Assembly (NCBI GenBank): GCA_022824405.1
Contig: JAJDZZ010000005.1
Location: 2,160-66,159 of the forward strand
Length of the DNA: 64,000 nt
Direction of reading: 5' to 3'
Source of the DNA: Opitutales bacterium
Lineage (GTDB): Bacteria; Verrucomicrobiota; Verrucomicrobiia; Opitutales; UBA2995
Notes under the pieces: generated by a model
The model's database searches: none
The model's input: the letters and a program-made list of their open reading frames with translations, nothing else
What the model was told of the DNA's origin: nothing
Made by a program: the position numbers and the translations under genes
Part shown: positions 2,947-20,845 of the stretch, piece after piece
Numbering within the stretch: position 1 is the stretch's first letter
Layout of the letters: each line of letters begins with the position of its first letter

Positions 2947-3660
2947 CTACGGCAGTTGTCCGGGAATCAGGCGTCCATCCTCCAATTGATAGCTCTTCTG
3001 CATGCGACCGGCCAATCCCAGATTATGAGTGACGACCACCAAGGCGACATTCCTCCCCCTGTTGCTATCGATGAGCAGGTCGGCGATACGTTCCCCCGTG
3101 GCAGGATCGAGCGACCCGGTCGGCTCGTCCGCCAAAATGATCTTTGGCCGATTGATCAGGGAGCGGGCAATGGCCACGCGCAGTTGTTCGCCTCCGGAGA
3201 GTTGATAAGGTCGGTATTCCATGCGATCCTGCAGGCCCACCTCCCCCAGGAGGGCCTCCGCCCGCTGCCGCGTCTCACTGGCAGGCTCCTCCCAATCCCC
3301 AGACAATCGAGGAACCAGCACGTTGTCCAATACCGAACATTGTGGAAGCAAGTAGTGGAGCTGAAAAATAAATCCGATGGACCGGTTTCGAAAATGGGCG
3401 GCGGCCTTTTCATCCAATTCACTAACGACTTTCCCATCCACTTCTACGGACCCGCTGGAAGGCCGGTCCAGAGCCCCCAACAAATTCAACAGGGTGGTCT
3501 TCCCACTCCCGGACGGTCCGACGATGGAGGCCGATTCCGACGCTCCCACCTCGAGATTCAGATCCCGCAATACCGTTAGCGGGCCAGCCGGGCTCTGGTA
3601 GGTTTTGCAGACTTTTCTTGCCCTTATCATTTTAGTTTGGTTTCTCGTTAATTTGTTCAC
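2947..3660 (-). CDS. ABC transporter ATP-binding protein (LolD/MacB-type)
   Basis: Walker [13 protein letters not shown] signature [15 protein letters not shown], Walker [13 protein letters not shown] and H-loop VVVTHN are all present. Confidence 0.95.
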
Positions 3661-13195: not shown

Positions 13196-16100
13196 ATGGG
13201 TAGGCCAGTGGAAAATGAGTGCATCCACCTGCGCGGGCTCCGCCAAAACAATCTGAAGGGATTCGACCTCGATTTACCCTTGGGAAAACTGATTGTGGTG
13301 ACCGGCCTGAGCGGGGCCGGGAAATCCTCCCTGGTATTCGAAACCCTGCACGCGGAAGGTCAACGGCGCTACGTGGAAACCTTCAGTCCTTACACCCGGC
13401 AGTTTCTCGAATTGCTCGACCGCCCCAAGCTGGACGCGGTCTCCAATATTCGCCCCTCCATCGCCATCCAACAGACCAACTCGGTCAAAACCTCCCGCTC
13501 CACCGTGGGCACCATGACGGAGTTGACCGACTTTTTCAAAGTCTGGTTCTGCCACGTGGCCCAACTCTTCGATCCCGCCACGGGCGAACGGGTGGAAGAT
13601 GACAATGCCCGCAGCATTTGGAAAAAAACGCAAAGGGCTCACCGAAACCAAACCCTTCTCATCACTTTCCCGGTGGAAAGGCCCAAGTCACTCAGTTGGG
13701 AAGAGATTCTCCAACCCATCAAGGCCCAGGGTTATACCCGCGTCCTGATTCAAGGCAATACCAGGCGGATCGAATCCATCGACCCCTCCCGACTCGATCT
13801 GGGTCAAATTTTCGTTATCCAGGACCGCCTGAAAATTGCATCGTCCAACCGTCACCGGTTTATCGACTCCGTACAAACGGCCTTTCACTACGGACAAGGA
13901 AAGGTCCGGTTATTCGAACCCTCGGGGAAAGAAGCGGGGCGCTATGCCACTGGCCTGCGTTCACCGGTCAGCGGCAAGACTTTCCGGCCGGCCACTCCTC
14001 CCCTGTTTTCCTTCAATTCACCGGTTGGGGCATGCCCGCGATGCCGGGGCTTCGGGCGCATTATCCAGGTGGATTACGGGAAAGCCATTCCCAATGGAAA
14101 ACTCAGCATCGACCAAGGCGCCATCAAGGCATGGCAAGGGGCGGTATACGGGGAAAGTAAAAAAGACCTGCTCGTCTTCTGCAGAAAGGAGAATATCCCC
14201 ACTGACATACCCTTTGAAGACCTGACCCGGGAACAACGTGATTTCGTCATAAACGGAGATCCGAACTACGGGAAAAAGGGCCACAAATGGCCCCGGGCAT
14301 GGTATGGTTTGAAAGGATTCTTCCGGTGGTTGGAAACCAAGGCCTATCGCATGCACGTCCGGGTATTCCTGTCGCGATTCAGGTCCTACACCCAATGCCC
14401 CGCGTGCGGGGGAGCCCGCCTCCAGCCCGAGGCTCTCAATTGGCGTTGGCGCGGCCACACCCTTCCAGGCCTTTACGCTCTTCCCATTCAGGAGTTGCGG
14501 CCTCTGCTTCGGGAAAATTTCAAGAAAACCGACGACCCGCGGGTAGATCTGGCCTATGAATCCATCGTTGCCCGACTGTCTTACCTCGACCGGGTCGGCC
14601 TGGGATATCTGACCCTCGACCGCACCTCCCGAACCCTTTCCGGCGGCGAAGTCGAACGGGTCAACCTCACTTCGTGTCTCGGCGCCTCCCTGGTCGATAC
14701 GCTCTTTGTCCTGGATGAACCTTCCATTGGGCTCCACTCCCGCGACATCGACCGGTTGATTGCCATCCTGCGCCGTCTGACCGACCTTGGCAACACGGTG
14801 GTGGTGGTAGAACACGATGAATCCATTATCCGGGCCGCCGATCACGTTTTGGAAATTGGTCCCAAACCCGGGACCGGGGGCGGTCGACTCGTTTTCCAAG
14901 GCCCCCTCCGGGAACTTCTGCACGATCCGGCATCCATTACCGGACAGTACCTGTCGGACAGGCGCTCCATTCCCCTGCCGGAATCCCGGCGAACCCTTTC
15001 GACATCCCCGGCCGAATCCCCCGCCACCCTTCCGCAGCTCAGCTTCCGGAACGTATCCAAGCATAATATAGACCGCCAGGATTTTCAAATTCCCCTGAAG
15101 TGTCTGGTATGCTTCACCGGGGTCAGCGGTTCGGGTAAATCCACTTTGTTGGATAACGTCATCTATCAAAACCTGCGGCAGCAAGGCGGTGTCATGGTTG
15201 ATGACCCGGCCGCGATAGCCTCTCTCGATTGTCCGGAGAAATTTGCCGGTATCGTCCTGGTGGACCAGGGCCCGGTCAGTAAAACGCCACGCTCCAACCC
15301 CCTGCTCTTCGTCAACGGCTGGAATGATGTTCGTCAATTGTTTGCCAGGACCGATGAGGCCTTAACCCAGGGATTTACCGCGGCCCACTTTTCCTTCAAC
15401 AGCGGAGACGGTCGGTGCGATCATTGTTCCGGGCTCGGCTATGAACGAGTGGAAATGCAATTCTTGTCCGATGTATTCGTTACCTGTCCCATCTGCGACG
15501 GGCAGCGGTTCAAACCGGAAATCCTCCGGATTAAATGGCAGGGACGATCCATCTCGGAAATTCTTAAATTAACCGTAGCGGAGGGATTGGAATTCTTTGC
15601 CGGACAACCGCGCCTGAGAACCCGTCTGGAAGCTCTGGATGCGGTGGGATTGGGTTACCTCAACTTGGGGCAGCCCCTCAACACGCTGTCCGGCGGTGAA
15701 TCGCAACGCCTCAAACTGGTCAAATATTTTTCCAAGGTCGAAGCCACCAGCGGTTCAACGCTTCTGCTTTTGGATGAACCGACCACCGGATTGCACAAGC
15801 ATGACGTGAAGCGGTTGATCGAGGTTCTCCACCAACTGGTGGACCAGGGGCACAGCGTCATGGTGATCGAGCACAACCTGGACGTGATCAAAAGCGCCGA
15901 CTGGATTATCGAACTGGGCCCTGAAGCCGGCGCCCTGGGGGGAAAAGTCATCGCCCAGGGGACCCCTGAACAGGTCATCCGGAAAAACATCCCTTCCCAA
16001 CCTTTTTTGATTCGGGAATTGAATCGAAACGGCAACGGTCGACCCGGAATCAATCCGGAGGGGCTACTCGCTGCGGAAGCGGCGGCCAACTACCACTCCT

Positions 16101-18826
16101 CCCCCAGACCTTCCTCCCCCTCCGTTGAACCCTCCGCCAAGGCACTGCGCATTTTCGGAGCCCGGCAGCACAATTTGAAGAACCTTTCCCTGACCATTCC
16201 CCACAACGAAATTTCCGTGGTTACGGGCGTTTCAGGGTCCGGCAAATCCAGCTTGGCCTTCGATATCGTGTTTGCGGAAGGACAGCGCCGTTTTCTGGAA
16301 TCGACCTCGGCCTATGCCCGGCAGTTCGTCGAAAAGTTGCCGCGGCCGGACGTAGATGACCTGCGGGGAATAGCGCCAACGGTAGCGATCGAACAACGGG
16401 TCACCCGCGGCAGCCGAAAATCAACCGTTGCGACCATCACCGAAGTGGCCCAATACCTGCGGCTGCTTTATGCGCGTTTGGGTGTCCAGCATTCCCCTGT
16501 TTCGGGACTTCCCGTCGTTTCGATGAGCCATTCGGCGCTGTCAAGGCATCTGGGGAAGCTGTTGGAACAACCTAAACTGAAAAGAGCCAGACACCTATAC
16601 TTGGCCGCCCCGCTGGTGCGCGGGCGCAAGGGCCATCATGAACCCATTGCCAAATGGATTGCCAAACAGGGCTTTGACCTCATGCGGGTGGATGGACGGT
16701 TAATCGAAGTAAGCGCATTCAAGAAACTGTCGCGCTACCTGGAGCACGACATCGAGGTAATTTTAAAAGACTTGGGAAAAGAGAGCCCGTCCGGCCCTCG
16801 CCGCTCCCCTCACCCGGAAGGGCCGAGTCCCGAAGCGGATTTACCGCAACTCCTGAAACGGGCCCTTCAACTCGGAAAAGGATCGGCCATGCTGTTGGAT
16901 TCCCGAGCCCGGATAATCACTTGGCTTTCGACCGAACGAGTGGACCCCATTTCCGGGCAAGCCTATCCGGAATTGGATCCCAAGCACTTCTCCTGGAACA
17001 GCTCCAAGGGATGGTGTCCGGAGTGCAATGGAAACGGCCATATCCGCCGCCAGGAAGAAGATCGGTCGGCCCATCGGAAATGGTTTTCGGAACCTTGCCA
17101 AGCCTGCGGAGGGGACCGATTGAACGAATTGTCCCGCAATGTGTATTTGAATTTTGCTAGCGGTCCTTCCCTCACTCTCCCCCAACTGCTCAAACTTCCC
17201 CCGGGGAACCTGCTGGATAAACTAAGCGATCTGAAACTGGACGAAAGGGGAAAGGCAGTGGTGGTGGATATCCTCCCGCAGATTCGGGAAAGGTTAAATT
17301 TCATGGGGCAAGTCGGCCTCGATTATCTAACCATGGATCGTCCTACCGCCACCCTGTCCAGCGGTGAGTCGCAGCGCATACGCTTGGCCGCCCAACTCGG
17401 TTCCAATTTATCGGGCGTTCTCTACGTTCTGGACGAGCCCTCCATCGGCTTGCACGCCCACGATAACTCCCGCCTGATCGAGTCCCTGAAAGACCTCAAA
17501 TCGCGCGGCAACACCTTGCTGGTGGTCGAACATGACGACGAAACCATGGAACAGGCGGACCGTATCGTCGACCTGGGTCCGGGCGCGGGAATCCATGGCG
17601 GAGAGGTTCTGGCCAACGGTTCATTGTCGGAAATCCTCAATACGCCCGAATCGTTAACCGGTCGGTATCTCAAGCGCGGCATCCCCCACCCCATCCGGGG
17701 GCATTACCGCAAATTGCCCAAGCCCTACCGCCCCCGGAGCCGCAAACAACAGGATTGGCTGGTCCTGAAGAAAGCCCGACTGAGAAACCTCAAAGGGGAC
17801 GACCTGATCCTGCCGCTCAATAAACTGATCATGGTCGGCGGTATTTCCGGCGCGGGAAAATCGACCCTGATTCGCGACCTGCTGCGTCCGGTGGTGGACT
17901 GCGCCCGCCGGAGAAACACCGGCAAATTGAATGAATCGGATTTTTCCAAAACGGAGGCATTGCCCAACACCCACGGCGGAAAGCCGTTCCAGCAATTGAT
18001 AAACGGCTCGGTTTTCCGCTCCGTCATCGAAGTCGACCAGAATCCCATCGGCAAGACACCGCGATCGACTCCCGCCACCTATATGGGAGCCATGGATAAC
18101 ATAAGGCAATTTTTTGCCGCTATTCCCGCCGCCAAAGCCCGCGGCTTGGATGCCGGCGCATTTTCCTTCAACACCCCCAAAGGCCGCTGTGAAACCTGCA
18201 AAGGGCTGGGAAAAATAAAACTGGAGATGAATTTCATGCCCAACGCCTATATGACATGTGAGGATTGTGGCGGTTCGCGCTACGGGCCGGAGCTGGACGA
18301 CATCCGTTGGAAAGGCAAAACCATCGCCGATATTTTACAAATGACCTTCGAGGAAGCGGCGGATTTCTTCAAAACTCACAGCCAACTGGGCGACGTGCTC
18401 TCCCTCATGGTGCAAACCGGTCTGGGCTACCTCACTTTGGGTCAAAGCAGCCCCACCCTATCCGGAGGAGAAGCGCAGCGCCTGAAACTGGTCCGGGAAC
18501 TGGCCAAAGGTTTGCCCAGTTTCCGGGATAAAAACCGCGCCATTAATTTTCACAACCTATATATCCTGGAAGAACCCACCATCGGCCTGCACCTGAGCGA
18601 TTGTGAAAGGCTCATTCACCTCCTGCACCAATTAGTGGATCAGGGCCATACCGTAATCGTCATCGAACACCACCTGGACCTTCTGGCGGAAGGCGATTAC
18701 CTGGTGGAAATCGGGCCCAAAGGCGGAGAAAAAGGCGGCTACATCCTCTACCAGGGACCTGTCGAAGGCCTCCTGAAATGCGAAAACAGCCCGACCAGAC
18801 CCTATCTGGAAAAGAAACTCGGTTAG
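13196..18826 (+). CDS. Tandem-duplicated UvrA-like ABC ATPase (two complete UvrA units fused, 1876 aa)
   Basis: Four Walker A sites (GLSGAGKSS, GVSGSGKST, GVSGSGKSS, GISGAGKST) and four ABC signatures (LSGGEVERV, LSGGESQRL, LSSGESQRI, LSGGEAQRL). Each half has the UvrA-type zinc modules (CPRCRGFG...CPACGG; CDHCSGLG...CPICDG; CPECNGNG...CQACGG; CETCKGLG...CEDCGG). The second unit starts near 16138 (LRIFGARQHNLKNLSL). Confidence 0.9.
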   Translation: MGRPVENECIHLRGLRQNNLKGFDLDLPLGKLIVVTGLSGAGKSSLVFETLHAEGQRRYVETFSPYTRQFLELLDRPKLDAVSNIRPSIAIQQTNSVKTSRSTVGTMTELTDFFKVWFCHVAQLFDPATGERVEDDNARSIWKKTQRAHRNQTLLITFPVERPKSLSWEEILQPIKAQGYTRVLIQGNTRRIESIDPSRLDLGQIFVIQDRLKIASSNRHRFIDSVQTAFHYGQGKVRLFEPSGKEAGRYATGLRSPVSGKTFRPATPPLFSFNSPVGACPRCRGFGRIIQVDYGKAIPNGKLSIDQGAIKAWQGAVYGESKKDLLVFCRKENIPTDIPFEDLTREQRDFVINGDPNYGKKGHKWPRAWYGLKGFFRWLETKAYRMHVRVFLSRFRSYTQCPACGGARLQPEALNWRWRGHTLPGLYALPIQELRPLLRENFKKTDDPRVDLAYESIVARLSYLDRVGLGYLTLDRTSRTLSGGEVERVNLTSCLGASLVDTLFVLDEPSIGLHSRDIDRLIAILRRLTDLGNTVVVVEHDESIIRAADHVLEIGPKPGTGGGRLVFQGPLRELLHDPASITGQYLSDRRSIPLPESRRTLSTSPAESPATLPQLSFRNVSKHNIDRQDFQIPLKCLVCFTGVSGSGKSTLLDNVIYQNLRQQGGVMVDDPAAIASLDCPEKFAGIVLVDQGPVSKTPRSNPLLFVNGWNDVRQLFARTDEALTQGFTAAHFSFNSGDGRCDHCSGLGYERVEMQFLSDVFVTCPICDGQRFKPEILRIKWQGRSISEILKLTVAEGLEFFAGQPRLRTRLEALDAVGLGYLNLGQPLNTLSGGESQRLKLVKYFSKVEATSGSTLLLLDEPTTGLHKHDVKRLIEVLHQLVDQGHSVMVIEHNLDVIKSADWIIELGPEAGALGGKVIAQGTPEQVIRKNIPSQPFLIRELNRNGNGRPGINPEGLLAAEAAANYHSSPRPSSPSVEPSAKALRIFGARQHNLKNLSLTIPHNEISVVTGVSGSGKSSLAFDIVFAEGQRRFLESTSAYARQFVEKLPRPDVDDLRGIAPTVAIEQRVTRGSRKSTVATITEVAQYLRLLYARLGVQHSPVSGLPVVSMSHSALSRHLGKLLEQPKLKRARHLYLAAPLVRGRKGHHEPIAKWIAKQGFDLMRVDGRLIEVSAFKKLSRYLEHDIEVILKDLGKESPSGPRRSPHPEGPSPEADLPQLLKRALQLGKGSAMLLDSRARIITWLSTERVDPISGQAYPELDPKHFSWNSSKGWCPECNGNGHIRRQEEDRSAHRKWFSEPCQACGGDRLNELSRNVYLNFASGPSLTLPQLLKLPPGNLLDKLSDLKLDERGKAVVVDILPQIRERLNFMGQVGLDYLTMDRPTATLSSGESQRIRLAAQLGSNLSGVLYVLDEPSIGLHAHDNSRLIESLKDLKSRGNTLLVVEHDDETMEQADRIVDLGPGAGIHGGEVLANGSLSEILNTPESLTGRYLKRGIPHPIRGHYRKLPKPYRPRSRKQQDWLVLKKARLRNLKGDDLILPLNKLIMVGGISGAGKSTLIRDLLRPVVDCARRRNTGKLNESDFSKTEALPNTHGGKPFQQLINGSVFRSVIEVDQNPIGKTPRSTPATYMGAMDNIRQFFAAIPAAKARGLDAGAFSFNTPKGRCETCKGLGKIKLEMNFMPNAYMTCEDCGGSRYGPELDDIRWKGKTIADILQMTFEEAADFFKTHSQLGDVLSLMVQTGLGYLTLGQSSPTLSGGEAQRLKLVRELAKGLPSFRDKNRAINFHNLYILEEPTIGLHLSDCERLIHLLHQLVDQGHTVIVIEHHLDLLAEGDYLVEIGPKGGEKGGYILYQGPVEGLLKCENSPTRPYLEKKLG

Positions 18827-18832
18827 TCGGTC

Positions 18833-18871
18833 AAATGTATCAAACCATAGCCGACATGCACCTTGGCAAAT
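18833..18871 (+). repeat. Left copy of the 39-bp direct repeat flanking the PIN/RHH cassette
   Basis: aaatgtatcaaaccatagccgacatgcaccttggcaaat matches aaaggtatcaaaccaaagccgaaatgcaccttggcaaat at 19634-19672 in 36 of 39 positions, at an offset of exactly 801 bp. Confidence 0.9.
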
Positions 18872-18925
18872 TGACACCCGCTTTAACTACGATCCATCGG
18901 TCTTTCCCTTTGGCTGAAAAGCCTG

Positions 18926-18962
18926 TTGACATTGACATGATACCAAATGCGGTATCATATTA
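18926..18962 (+). promoter_or_regulatory. Candidate promoter with operator palindrome for the PIN/RHH operon
   Basis: Overlapping ttgaca hexamers (18926-18931 and 18932-18937), a 7-6-7 palindrome tgatacc-aaatgc-ggtatca (18938-18957), and tatcat / tattaa -10-like hexamers immediately before the ATG at 18963. Confidence 0.4.
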
Positions 18963-19379
18963 ATGATTGTTATTGATACTAATGTGATGGTGTCTGCGCT
19001 TCGGTCGAGCCTTGGCGCGTCACATTTGCTTGTTCAAAGTATAGCGGAAAGGAAATTTGAATACGCCATTTCGGCAGCTCTGATTTTTGAGTATGAGGAC
19101 GCGATTAAAAGAGCAATGGATTGTATTTTATTAACGGACAAGGAATTGGACCTATTTCTGGATTCAATAGTAGCTCTGGGAACCACCTTCTCACCCTTTT
19201 TTCTATGGCGACCCTTCCTTTCTGACCCTAAAGACGATTATGTGCTTGAACTGGCAGCGGTGTCCCGATCCAAGGCAATTATCACTTACAACCAAAAGGA
19301 TTTCAAAGGCATAGAAAAATTTGGAATTCAGACTTTGCCTCCAAAAGTTTATTTGCAAAAGAAAGGATTAATTCAATGA
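18963..19379 (+). CDS. PIN-domain toxin (PIN_3 / TIGR00305-like)
   Basis: N-terminus MIVIDTNVMVSAL, with acidic residues in DPKDDYVLELA and ITYNQKDF. It is 138 aa, and its stop overlaps the next start in an ATGA. Confidence 0.8.
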   Translation: MIVIDTNVMVSALRSSLGASHLLVQSIAERKFEYAISAALIFEYEDAIKRAMDCILLTDKELDLFLDSIVALGTTFSPFFLWRPFLSDPKDDYVLELAAVSRSKAIITYNQKDFKGIEKFGIQTLPPKVYLQKKGLIQ

Positions 19380-19612
19380 GCACACTTAGCCTTAGACTCC
19401 CAGACTCCCTTCACCGGCATATCAAGGAATATTCAGAACGGGAGGGGGTTTCCATTAACCAATTCATCTCAACGGCAGTGGCCGAAAAAATGTCCGCGCT
19501 TTCAACCGAGGATTACCTTAAGGCGAGGGCTTCCAGGGGAAGCGCGGAAAAGCTAAAACAGGTACTTTCCAAAGTTCCAAGCGTTGATCCTTTCGAAGAT
19601 GATGTTCTGTAA
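19376..19612 (+). CDS. Ribbon-helix-helix / HicB-like antitoxin
   Basis: 78 aa. LSLRLPDSLHRHIKEYSEREGVSINQFISTAVAEKMS fits an RHH DNA-binding fold. It is translationally coupled to the PIN gene, in toxin-first order. Confidence 0.7.
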   Translation: MSTLSLRLPDSLHRHIKEYSEREGVSINQFISTAVAEKMSALSTEDYLKARASRGSAEKLKQVLSKVPSVDPFEDDVL

Positions 19613-19633
19613 TTGTTTGCGAGACCGCTTAAG

Positions 19634-19672
19634 AAAGGTATCAAACCAAAGCCGAAATGCACCTTGGCAAAT
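19634..19672 (+). repeat. Right copy of the 39-bp direct repeat
   Basis: See 18833-18871. This copy ends 1 nt before the stop codon (19673) of the convergent Ig-like gene. Confidence 0.9.
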
Positions 19673-20845
19673 CTATGGATCAATTATTCGCACTCGAAGG
19701 CGGCTGAACTGGCGGGCGGAAAGCGGCAACTTCAAAACGAAATTTTCCATGGTCTGCTCAATGACCACTCCATTTTCCCCGTCGACCAATGGAGTCCACT
19801 GGGACGAATTCAGGTCATTAGTGGCTTCCGCCGAAACCTCGATTTCGGCACACGGTCTGAGAGCCGGGAACGTTAACAGGCGATAGGGAGTTGCTTGAAT
19901 AACCTCAGTCGAAATTACTGGAAATTTTCCCGCATCCGGCATCTGAGGCTCCAAGTCAAAAACAAACTCCAGAAGATTGGGAAGCGAATCACCATCCGGA
20001 TCACTCAAGGCTCCAGCCGTTTCGGAAGTTGGATCGTCAAAATGGCTTTCGGTCCAGACTTGCAGGGCGGGACCCGATTGCACCGTGACGAAGACAGGAG
20101 CGTCGGCCGGAGCGGGGACGACTTCAACGAGGTTATTCTGTCTCACCACTACCCGGTAACTACCTTCAACTTCCGCCGTCACGTTGGGCACAATGTAAAC
20201 CCGGGAAGTTGCCCCGGCGATGTCGGCAAACCCCACGTTGTCACTCCTTCGCGATTGCCACTGAAAAGTTGCGCCGGTTTCATCTGCCAATTCTACCTCC
20301 AACCTCAGCCTACAACCATCCACTACCCTTTGACTGACCGGTGCCCGGGTAATTTGAGGACCTGACAAGGTAATGTTGAAATCCAAATCCAATTCCCGAA
20401 CAGGCGCCGTTGGCACTCCCCAGGTCAGCACTCTGAGCTTGACCGGATAGTTGCCCGTCTGGTTGGGAATTCCGAAGATTAGCACCGTCCCGTTAGGCAC
20501 TTCTCCATCGCTGTCCTGATTGGTCTCCATTCCGGGCGGAAGATCGCCGATAATTTCCACTTTTCTGGGGGTAGCGCGTTCCGCCTGAACGGCCACCGTC
20601 ATGCGTTCGCCGACCACTCCCCGGACACTTCCCGTTACCTGGAAATCCCCGGTTGCCCCCGTTACGGTATTATAAGCGCCCACCGAGACGGCCGAGGCGA
20701 CAAACACTTTGGCCGCGTGCAACACCCGGGGCGCCAGGGCAAATTCCACCTCGACCAGGGATTTAATTAAAGGCGTCCTTTGCAAGAACAGACATAGGGC
20801 TATCCCAGGCCAGGTCAGAGTGAGCTTTGCGAGAAGTTTTTTCAT
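19673..20845 (-). CDS. Secreted Ig-like domain protein with C-terminal DPDGDSLPNLLEF motif
   Basis: Preferred start is MKKLLAKLTLTWPGIALCLF (signal-like, ATG 20845); the track ORF starts upstream at a TTG (21034). It contains an Ig-like repeat (QWQSRRSDNVGFADIAGATSRVYIVPNVTAEVEGSYRVVV) and a calcium-binding-like DPDGD motif. Confidence 0.6.
   Translation of the reverse strand: MKKLLAKLTLTWPGIALCLFLQRTPLIKSLVEVEFALAPRVLHAAKVFVASAVSVGAYNTVTGATGDFQVTGSVRGVVGERMTVAVQAERATPRKVEIIGDLPPGMETNQDSDGEVPNGTVLIFGIPNQTGNYPVKLRVLTWGVPTAPVRELDLDFNITLSGPQITRAPVSQRVVDGCRLRLEVELADETGATFQWQSRRSDNVGFADIAGATSRVYIVPNVTAEVEGSYRVVVRQNNLVEVVPAPADAPVFVTVQSGPALQVWTESHFDDPTSETAGALSDPDGDSLPNLLEFVFDLEPQMPDAGKFPVISTEVIQATPYRLLTFPALRPCAEIEVSAEATNDLNSSQWTPLVDGENGVVIEQTMENFVLKLPLSARQFSRLRVRIIDP

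Follow-up and report, generated by a model that had tools for sequence, protein, structure and literature searches.

The window analysed in this study is a stretch of 64,000 nt from the genome of an Opitutales bacterium (GCA_022824405.1, contig JAJDZZ010000005.1). Two of its genes converge on a small insert. The left one is a double UvrA-like ORF of 1876 aa (13196-18826, plus strand, stop codon TAG at 18824-18826), and the right one encodes an Ig-like protein of 390 aa (19673-20845, minus strand, ATG at 20845). Between them, two 39-nt direct repeats, AAATGTATCAAACCATAGCCGACATGCACCTTGGCAAAT at 18833-18871 and AAAGGTATCAAACCAAAGCCGAAATGCACCTTGGCAAAT at 19634-19672 (both plus strand), bracket a pair of genes for a PIN toxin and an RHH antitoxin. 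An earlier note on this DNA had described these repeats as matching at 36 of 39 positions and lying 801 nt apart. Both values were verified, and none of 100 shuffled sequences yielded two matches. The left copy begins 6 nt past the UvrA-like stop codon, after the spacer TCGGTC (18827-18832), and the right copy abuts the stop codon of the Ig-like gene (19673-19675, minus strand).

The DNA between the repeats (18872-19633) has a GC content of 43.4%, compared with 54.6% for the genome, and ranks in the bottom 0.3% of genome windows of that length (762 nt); the AT-richness that had been judged by eye was thus borne out by computation. The PIN gene has 40.5% GC and the RHH gene 48.1%. The core of the cassette, which comprises promoter, operator, PIN and RHH genes (18896-19612, plus strand), is present at two different sites in the genus, the junction described here (site A) and a second one (site B). 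Its right limit is the RHH stop codon, and its left limit is approximate, being placed within a CTTTC microhomology. The core is flanked on the plus strand by a non-coding stretch on the left (18872-18895), found in all site-A alleles and absent from the site-B copy L046, and by 21 nt on the right (TTGTTTGCGAGACCGCTTAAG, 19613-19633), found in site-A alleles only and 76% identical to the corresponding stretch of the related allele L045.

A promoter-like region (18926-18961, plus strand) opens with tandem TTGACA hexamers (TTGACATTGACA, 18926-18937). The best sigma-70-like promoter combines the second of them (18932-18937) with CATATT (18956-18961) at a spacing of 18 nt and matches at 10 of 12 positions. 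Since this -10 element ends 2 nt before the ATG of the toxin gene, the transcript probably has little or no leader. Between the -35 and -10 elements lies an 8-6-8 palindrome, ATGATACC-AAATGC-GGTATCAT (18937-18958), whose arms consist of TGATACC and GGTATCA extended by an outer A and T (folding z = -3.6), and which is presumed to be the operator for RHH autoregulation. It is unchanged in alleles of the window's own type, in L045 and in L054, and in the site-B copy L046 the spacer shows one substitution, AAATGC to GAATGC, with the arms intact.

The toxin gene (18963-19379, plus strand) encodes a predicted RNase-type toxin of 138 aa in the PIN_3 family, scoring 55.9 bits (9e-15; cut-off 27) against PF13470 and 33 bits (cut-off 29.15) against TIGR00305. 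A comparison of 20 homologues showed conservation of residues D5, E43, E45, D88, D91, D92, N110 and D113, all present here. The antitoxin gene (19376-19612, plus strand) encodes 78 aa that carry the NCBI family name 'HicB family antitoxin'; the protein scores 28.9 bits against HicB (cut-off 21) and also matches DUF6290 and CopG. The toxin comes first, and the antitoxin start overlaps the toxin stop through a 4-nt ATGA. The hexamer pair, the palindrome, both genes and their overlap in this order had all been noticed earlier, and all were verified. The PIN-RHH adjacency is kept in every homologous locus inspected, and hundreds of metagenomic contigs contain the pair again. Outside the genus, PIN homologues reach no more than 65% identity, and the closest of them are scattered over several phyla. 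No solved structure was detectable by sequence, and a PADLOC search for defence systems gave no match.

Judged from its sequence, the insert is a toxin-antitoxin (TA) module of type II that stands on its own, with a predicted promoter and palindromic operator inside it. It resembles known pairs of a PIN_3/TIGR00305 toxin with an RHH antitoxin in that curated cut-offs are passed, the acidic residues are kept, the antitoxin is coupled and a palindrome lies in the promoter. The module itself appears routine: most likely, the RHH protein would act as a dimer that occupies the operator and keeps the PIN toxin inactive. With VapBC it shares a PIN-fold toxin, a small DNA-binding antitoxin and an autoregulated operon, here as predicted features. 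However, the toxin comes first, whereas in VapBC the antitoxin is upstream; the antitoxin is an RHH protein of the HicB/CopG type; and the score against PF01850, 14.1 bits, lies below the cut-off of 23.6 that would assign the toxin to VapBC. Long flanking repeats (56-63 nt) also occur at 2 of 14 distant loci of the PIN-RHH family. They were rejected as a family property, since both cases are explained by a TA array with a repeated promoter or by an IS110-like fragment nearby.

The uvrA-like/Ig-like junction is an insertion hot spot

The C-terminus of the UvrA-like protein, ..EKKLG*, is the native end, common to G001, G003 and L045. The end of the Ig-like protein, ..IIDP* with its stop codon (CTATGGATC on the plus strand), is common only to TA-bearing alleles, and TA-free relatives end in ..LLVD* or ..LVDG*. 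In G001, which belongs to the same genus, the stop codons of the two flanking genes overlap; there is no spacer and nothing is inserted. This empty junction, the low GC content and the distance to PIN homologues outside the genus uphold the earlier view that a self-contained cassette of foreign origin was inserted here. The insert is AT-rich foreign DNA placed between abutting convergent 3' ends. The 6-nt spacer TCGGTC is similar to TCGACC, the last codons of the Ig-like gene after the uvrA-like stop in the empty site of G001. The spacer reads CCGGAT in L045, L054 and L062.

Across congeners the spacer at this junction measures 0, ~130, ~232, ~291, ~520 or ~2185 bp; the value of ~520 bp belongs to G002 and crosses a masked run of N, and the relative L049 has 422 nt. 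The other occupants of the junction, in G002-G006, L049-L053 and L073, are repeat modules or a 516-aa transposase ORF of an insertion sequence (IS). The uvrA-like/Ig-like junction is thus an insertion hot spot in the genus. One of its inserts carries information on how flanks behave here. Locus L073 contains a REP-like insert of ~77 nt bounded by a 27-nt repeat (24 of 27 positions match), and this repeat copies the sequence of the native junction, from the final uvrA codons through their stop codon and the spacer to the start of the Ig-like stop codon. Removal of the insert reconstructs a junction with a 12-nt spacer. The junction of G004 has a structure of the same kind. The 27-nt duplication in L073 indicates that long flank duplications do arise at this junction. 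The ancestral convergent spacer of about 46 bp proposed earlier was seen nowhere, the values obtained being zero in G001 and 12 nt for L073. The arrangement of repeat, TA module and repeat occurs identically or nearly so on ~13 independent metagenome contigs and is therefore not an assembly artefact.

Origin of the direct repeats

The earlier proposal was that the 39-mer acts as an att-like or cassette-boundary sequence that might flank other cassettes or mark empty sites. The searches turned out against it. The genome of 3.39 Mb contains exactly two copies (3 mismatches allowed, plus blastn-short). The 39-mer was not found beyond this locus and its direct relatives in 400 genomes of the order, in 15 genomes of the family (BLAST with both repeat-plus-flank queries) or in two scans of JGI metagenome contigs, and it was not found in viral contigs or in plasmid and phage collections. 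A fuzzy search of the collected loci (up to 9 substitutions) returned matches from site-A alleles only. Every site-A allele keeps the 39-mer, including those that have lost the toxin, and none of the TA-free alleles (G001-G006, L049-L053, L073) carries a copy. A context look-up for a junction allele with a single 39- or 49-mer gave L073, which lacks the 39-mer.

The second site argues in the same direction. At site B the same core lies upstream of the Ig-like gene (L046, 88% PIN identity), and the flanks present on this 1,053-nt contig (~210 nt on the left, ~120 nt on the right) do not contain the 39-mer. The limits of the segment common to sites A and B are the RHH stop codon and a point ~65 nt before the PIN start rather than the repeats.

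These observations bear on a model in which the repeats are attL/attR-like sites of a recombinase-less cassette of ~0.8 kb, moved like a CIME or an integron cassette by a recombinase from elsewhere. Direct repeats of att-like length do bracket the cassette, both copies evolve in concert, the cassette is younger than its flanks, and the same site is occupied in lineages that, by their flanks, are not most closely related. However, the 39-mer is unique to this locus, with no secondary site, empty attB or other cassette, and the repeat length is unequal between alleles (39 versus at least 49 nt). The second location of the cassette lacks the repeat, and the boundaries common to both locations fall elsewhere. 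That different lineages have the cassette at one and the same site is more simply explained by homologous recombination in the flanks, since these are visibly mosaic. No recombinase or transposase gene lies between or beside the repeats, as had been noted before, and the only two tyrosine recombinases of the genome are on other contigs.

Comparison with known mobile elements points the same way. The attC site of an integron cassette is an imperfect inverted repeat with the order R''/L''-L'/R' and a GTTRRRY core at the 3' end of the cassette. The insert is like such cassettes, among them the TA cassettes of chromosomal integrons, in its size of ~0.8 kb, its TA genes with their own promoter and its repeated boundary sequence, but it has no attC-like imperfect palindrome, R'/R'' core sites, integrase, array or second cassette with the same boundary. 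The 39-mer has no dyad symmetry, its fold is no better than that of shuffled sequence (z = +0.3 to +0.4), and no GTTRRRY core was read in the 60 nt from the RHH stop to the Ig-like stop. It differs from an integrative element with att sites, or a cis-mobilisable one without its integrase, in that the repeat length varies and no empty site bears the core. IS elements, transposons and MITEs have terminal inverted repeats and target-site duplications shorter than 15 bp; here no pair of inverted repeats was found in 18000-20500, and the duplication is 39 nt. Taken together, we consider an att-type origin improbable.

It has also to be asked whether the 39-mer is a selected cis element kept in two copies, either a secondary RHH binding site or a terminator or insulator against read-through from the flanking genes. 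One operator arm, GGTATCA, is present in the right copy and, in L045, in the left copy too; just past the Ig-like stop, the minus strand can fold into a hairpin of 6-8 bp with UUUGAU after it; and the repeat is retained even where the toxin is deleted. Against such a role, the half-site varies between copies (TGTATCA, GGAATCA), folding does not exceed that of shuffles, terminator prediction called none, an Rfam search gave no match, and the site-B cassettes manage without the 39-mer. Read by eye in six frames, the two copies share no consistent coding frame. A role as a selected element seems to us quite improbable. Two further candidates for kinship of the repeat were rejected. The 39/49-mer shares with the REP-like module of the genome only an exact match of 8 nt (GACACCCG), which 165 of 1000 shuffles equalled, and an alignment of the right repeat with the DNA 3' of an orphan RHH gene in G006 fails directly after the stop codon.

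The explanation that we favour, with about an even chance of being right, is that the 39-nt repeats are a flank duplication left by the insertion itself, an insertion with long flanking (target) duplication, rather than an att site. A fragment or circle of DNA would have joined the junction by recombination that is independent of a recombinase, either homology-assisted or illegitimate, and would have left a duplication of 39 nt, or of at least 49 nt in some relatives. The defining sign of a target duplication, an empty site that holds the repeated sequence just once, was seen at this junction for the insert of L073, in the form of its 27-nt duplication, and not for the TA insert. Since no TA-free allele has a single copy of the 39-mer, the original target may be unsampled, or the repeat may have come with the insert.

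The latter possibility belongs to a second explanation, in which the repeat was not made at integration. Either it arrived as part of the DNA, taken from a donor array with the 39/49-mer between successive modules or from a small circle of more than unit length (terminal redundancy), or it arose after insertion, when a tandem duplication of ~800 bp lost most of its second copy and left the first 39-49 nt. The absence of the 39-mer from every TA-free allele would be expected in this case. The right ends of L054 and L060 also speak for it. The left repeat of the window is followed on its inner side by the 10 nt TGACACCCGC (18872-18881, plus strand); in L054 and L060 this stretch, as GGACACCCGC, is also present after the right copy, which then continues like the start of a second unit. 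In addition, the gammaproteobacterial MAG L034 has a distant homologous PIN-RHH pair in a TA array, where a 56-nt promoter-like repeat precedes two different modules. On the other hand, none of the collections searched yielded a donor or another occurrence of the 39-mer, the cassettes at site B are without it, and two cassette copies were seen on no contig. Tandem duplications usually collapse cleanly, and a clean collapse, not a 39-nt stub ending exactly at a stop codon, would be expected from the version with tandem duplication. An origin before or after integration is therefore a rather unlikely explanation in our judgement, although one to be kept in mind.

History of the allele and known insertions of this kind

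The right 39-mer followed by GGACACCCGC in L054 and L060 makes the duplication there at least 49 nt long. In these loci the 10 extra bases of the insert are followed by a REP array, and a partial second cassette fits this right end equally as well as a longer original duplication does; both contigs, from short-read metagenome assemblies, stop within ~50 nt of that point.

If the repeats arose as a flank duplication, they have not remained static since. Positions 22 and 28 are A22/A28 in both copies of the window's own genome and G22/T28 in both copies of L045, in the own population position 23 of the left copy toggles between C and A, L057 has in the right position a copy that matches the left copy of L045 exactly, and six site pairs fail the four-gamete test. 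It is plausible that the two 39-mers exchange sequence by gene conversion, across only 39 bp, and part of this pattern could come from recurrent mutation or recombination between strains. The earlier note had asked whether relatives would show the same arrangement with diverged repeats and native-like composition. The arrangement does recur in relatives, but its repeats evolve in concert rather than diverging, and its composition is AT-rich, not native.

The allele may also have moved. Between the window and L045, third codon positions differ by 6.9% in the cassette, compared with 17.8% in uvrA (p = 2e-4) and 27.7% in the Ig-like gene, and the flanks of L045 are closest to those of TA-free L052, G005 and L073. 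The allele of repeat, TA module and repeat is thus younger than its flanks, which suggests lateral spread; the whole allele would pass between lineages by homologous recombination in the flanks. A cross-over between the repeats would remove the cassette, an outcome against which the addictive toxin would select. The toxin is missing and the antitoxin kept at site A in L056, L057, L059 and L060 (L061, in which the same RHH gene is present, is left out of this list), and the toxin is missing at site B in G006 and L055. Several lineages appear to have deleted the toxin independently while retaining the antitoxin. This pattern and the palindrome between the -35 and -10 elements lend indirect support to the predicted toxicity, neutralisation and operator binding.

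A bolder view is that the 0.8-kb unit of repeat, TA module and repeat is a minimal mobile cassette without a recombinase of its own, whose repeats release a circle that re-enters at the same or a related sequence. Recombination would then depend on host RecA or on a recombinase acting in trans, and cells that had lost the cassette would be counter-selected through the toxin. Such a cassette would explain at once the concerted repeats, the tandem-like right end of L054 and L060 and the flanks that are not each other's closest relatives. We hold this view with little confidence.

The flank duplication that we favour has its closest parallel in restriction-modification (RM) gene complexes, for which 'insertion with long target duplication' has been described (Nobusato et al. 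2000, Gene 259:99; Furuta, Abe & Kobayashi 2010, NAR 38:2428, PMC2853133). In that class the repeats exceed 30 bp, with 46-47 bp in several of the published examples, and are not multicopy, the insert is shorter than 20 kb and has no mobility gene, and the empty site has exactly one copy (PMC2853133). [quoted passage not shown] It is unlike the RM cases in that the cargo is a TA module, some alleles have repeats of 39 nt and others of at least 49 nt, and the sampled empty sites lack a single repeat copy, which is seen only for the REP-like insert of L073. A ParE/ParD-like TA module between two 152-bp direct repeats has been reported in Microcystis aeruginosa PCC 7806 (Klemencic et al. 2021, PMC7935541). 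It too is a chromosomal type II module just 3' of a stop codon with direct repeats around it, but its toxin belongs to another family and its repeats are longer and identical and contain inverted repeats.

No new cassette or att system comes to light at this locus. Rather, the long-target-duplication route, which is poorly understood, would be extended to a TA module in Verrucomicrobia-type (Opitutae) genomes. A single junction between convergent genes has repeatedly taken in foreign DNA, including repeat modules, an IS and a TA module, and each surviving insertion bears a duplicated flank. The results also provide a natural history of such a locus, in which gene conversion between the repeats, lateral spread of the allele and the loss, more than once, of the toxin but not of the antitoxin would have followed the insertion.

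Repeats and cassette between the convergent genes

The earlier note described a PIN/RHH toxin-antitoxin (TA) cassette between two 39-nt direct repeats, and these were found as proposed. The left copy of this 39-mer (18833-18871) begins 6 nt past the stop of a 1876-aa double-UvrA-like ORF (uvrA), the right copy (19634-19672) abuts the stop of a minus-strand Ig-like gene, and the two, spaced by 801 nt, are identical at 36 of 39 positions. Two such matches were obtained in none of the shuffles of the window sequence. The AT-richness of the interior, previously judged by eye, was confirmed by genome-window statistics: its GC content is 43.4% versus 54.6% for the genome, within the lowest 0.3% of equal-sized windows. 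Assembly artefact is excluded, since the same repeat-TA-repeat layout is present in about 13 independent metagenome contigs. Judging by the protein names of close relatives, the organism belongs to the Opitutae/Opitutales.

The 3.39-Mb genome contains exactly two copies of the 39-mer, both at the TA locus. No copy was found in 400 order-level genomes, in 15 family genomes searched by BLAST, in two scans of metagenomes and one of viral sequences, or in the plasmid and phage collections. Thus, the 39-mer is not a common intergenic repeat, being unique to the locus across the genome and the collections searched. Nor does it bound several cassettes: these searches found no copy at any other cassette.

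The features reported between the repeats are all present: the promoter-like ttgaca pair, the palindrome, the PIN and RHH genes and the ATGA overlap. The tandem TTGACA hexamers lie inside the cassette, and the -10 of a sigma-70-like promoter ends 2 nt before the PIN ATG. A Shine-Dalgarno sequence is absent in the region of the best -10 hexamer (18956-18965), and the toxin-antitoxin mRNA is probably leaderless. An 8-6-8 palindrome (fold z = -3.6) is located between the -35 and -10. The predicted toxin belongs to PIN_3 (PF13470, 9e-15; TIGR00305 above cut-off) and has the conserved acidic residues; the gene of the predicted RHH antitoxin overlaps it by ATGA. Positions 19637-19643 of the right 39-mer read GGTATCA, the same as one arm of the operator palindrome (18951-18957); the left 39-mer reads TGTATCA there, and the positions are variable among relatives. 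The match is probably a coincidence; it could also mark a candidate secondary RHH site. The 39-mer showed no sign of an RNA element or terminator (insignificant fold, no Rfam match, no inverted symmetry), and it is very improbable that it is a functional cis element.

Distant homologous PIN-RHH modules were seen in two MAGs. The one in a gammaproteobacterial MAG (L034, 3521-4817) lies within an array of TA modules, with a repeated 56-nt promoter-like sequence ahead of them. The one in an Anaerolineales MAG (L032, 3818-5102) shares the space between 63-nt direct repeats with an IS110-like fragment.

Exchange, movement and decay of the module

The repeat-TA-repeat layout was also found in the loci L045, L054 and L062; apart from the GTDB species representatives, all relatives are short contigs from metagenomes. 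The 39-mer copies are more alike within a genome than to their positional counterparts in other genomes: positions 22 and 28 are A and A in both copies here, and G and T in both copies of L045. In the population of this genome's allele, the base at position 23 of the left copy is either C or, as in the right copy, A, and six site pairs fail the four-gamete test. L056 and L057 keep the right-position copy only, and its sequence is that of the left copy in L045. These patterns indicate sequence exchange between the two copies. What comes after the right copy in L054 and L060 is not directly the Ig stop but GGACACCCGC, the same 10 nt as behind the left copy, with a REP array beyond it; the duplication there is therefore at least 49 nt. 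This end, about 50 nt short of where the contigs stop, may represent a longer original duplication or the start of a second cassette copy.

At third codon positions, this allele and L045 differ by 6.9% over the cassette, by 17.8% over the adjoining uvrA segment (p = 2e-4) and by 27.7% over the Ig gene. The flanks are visibly mosaic, and those of L045 are nearest to the TA-free L052, G005 and L073. Because the cassette is less diverged than its flanks and the L045 flanks are nearest to TA-free alleles, the data suggest that the entire allele spread laterally via homologous recombination in the mosaic flanks.

A second location of the cassette core lies immediately upstream of the Ig-like gene, beside eno. 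The core is intact there in L046 (210-940; PIN identity 88%), whereas in the congener G006 (L026, 4236-4530) and in L055 (1-320) decay has left only the RHH gene and the final 57 nt of PIN (93% identity). About 1.1 kb of DNA without an Rfam match precedes the G006 remnant. No 39-mer was found at this second site within the short flanks recovered. The two sites have in common a stretch that begins about 65 nt before the PIN start and closes with the RHH stop codon; its ends do not coincide with the repeats, so the module moves as a fragment with variable ends rather than by precise recombination at the 39-mer. An active att-like mini-cassette could account for a module framed by repeats, and is quite improbable; recombination machinery is not obvious, and the two tyrosine recombinases of the genome are both on other contigs.

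In L056, L057, L059 and L060, a deletion with 5-nt microhomology (TCCGA) has removed the left repeat together with the promoter and the initial 315 nt of PIN, leaving the RHH gene intact. In all four, as at L057 2385-2500, this orphan antitoxin stands directly behind the uvrA-like stop. L061 shares the RHH protein and right-copy haplotype of these alleles, its 5' end being outside the comparison. The site-A (uvrA/Ig junction) deletion and the second-site remnant are thus two independent events in which the toxin was lost and the antitoxin kept.

The uvrA/Ig junction as an insertion hot spot

The TA block is an insertion at a hot spot. The uvrA and Ig-like genes are still convergent in six other species of the genus, with a different spacer in each. 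In G001 the stop codons overlap (..GGTTAGTCGAC..), leaving no spacer and no 39-mer. G002 (L025), G004 (L024) and L049 hold an insert of 291-520 bp made up of the genome's mosaic repeat modules, around which the junction is partly duplicated (GCTAGCCGACC / GCTAGTCGACC). G003 has a 2.2 kb insert with a 516-aa DDE-transposase-like ORF at the convergent junction (L028, 1979-3529). In L073, which matches the TA-bearing L045 at 98.5% identity over the Ig-eno flank, a REP-like module of about 77 nt lies between 27-nt direct repeats (24/27; 3484-3614). This 27-nt repeat copies the native junction from the final uvrA codons through their stop and a 12-nt spacer to the beginning of the Ig stop. DNA entry at this junction thus demonstrably produces, or selects for, long flank duplications. 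Both flanking genes stay intact only if an insertion duplicates the junction or brings new ends.

For the TA locus, insertion with long target duplication is the best fit, held at about even confidence because the defining empty site, one with a single copy of the repeat, was not among the alleles compared. Neither other cassettes nor empty sites were found with the 39-mer in this and related genomes; no TA-free allele has a single copy, and the predicted ancestral spacer of about 46 bp was not recovered. That the repeat came with the fragment, or arose via partial tandem duplication, is less probable. Insertion with long target duplication has been described for restriction-modification modules, where unique repeats of >30 bp located beside stop codons enclose a low-GC insert and mobility genes are lacking (PMC2853133), and the TA insert resembles this class in each respect. 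A Microcystis TA module is likewise flanked by long repeats, 152 bp there (PMC7935541) versus 39 nt here.

Mosaic modules and gene termini

A REP-like unit (GGCGCGGCAAGGATGCCGTCGCCCTACC...) has about 47 copies in the genome, sometimes arranged in tandem with a unit of 37 nt. Outside the window, where the REP-like/Y1 loci are C76:8493-9152, C22:25935-27158 and C34:~2378-2490, there are two ORFs for IS200-like Y1 transposases (PF01797; 133 and 312 aa), each flanked by long direct repeats of REP-like sequence, one pair being perfect over 77 nt and the other 90% identical over 132 nt. The arrangement suggests that a REP/RAYT-type system underlies the mosaic modules. A low-GC (44%) block outside the window (C19:42465-43640), bracketed by 143-nt direct repeats (91%) built of mosaic modules, may be another small cassette; the two short ORFs on its minus strand (85 and 132 aa) have no Pfam match.

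In G005, G006 and L051-L053, other modules stand in place of the last uvrA codons. The last 7 or so codons are swapped for module-encoded sequence in G005 (L027, 1675-1760) and G006 (L026, 1720-1752), and the UvrA-like C-termini encoded by mosaic modules read ..YLNKRMKEG.. and ..YLSKRMKAKG*. Gene termini are rewritten by repeat modules in this genus.
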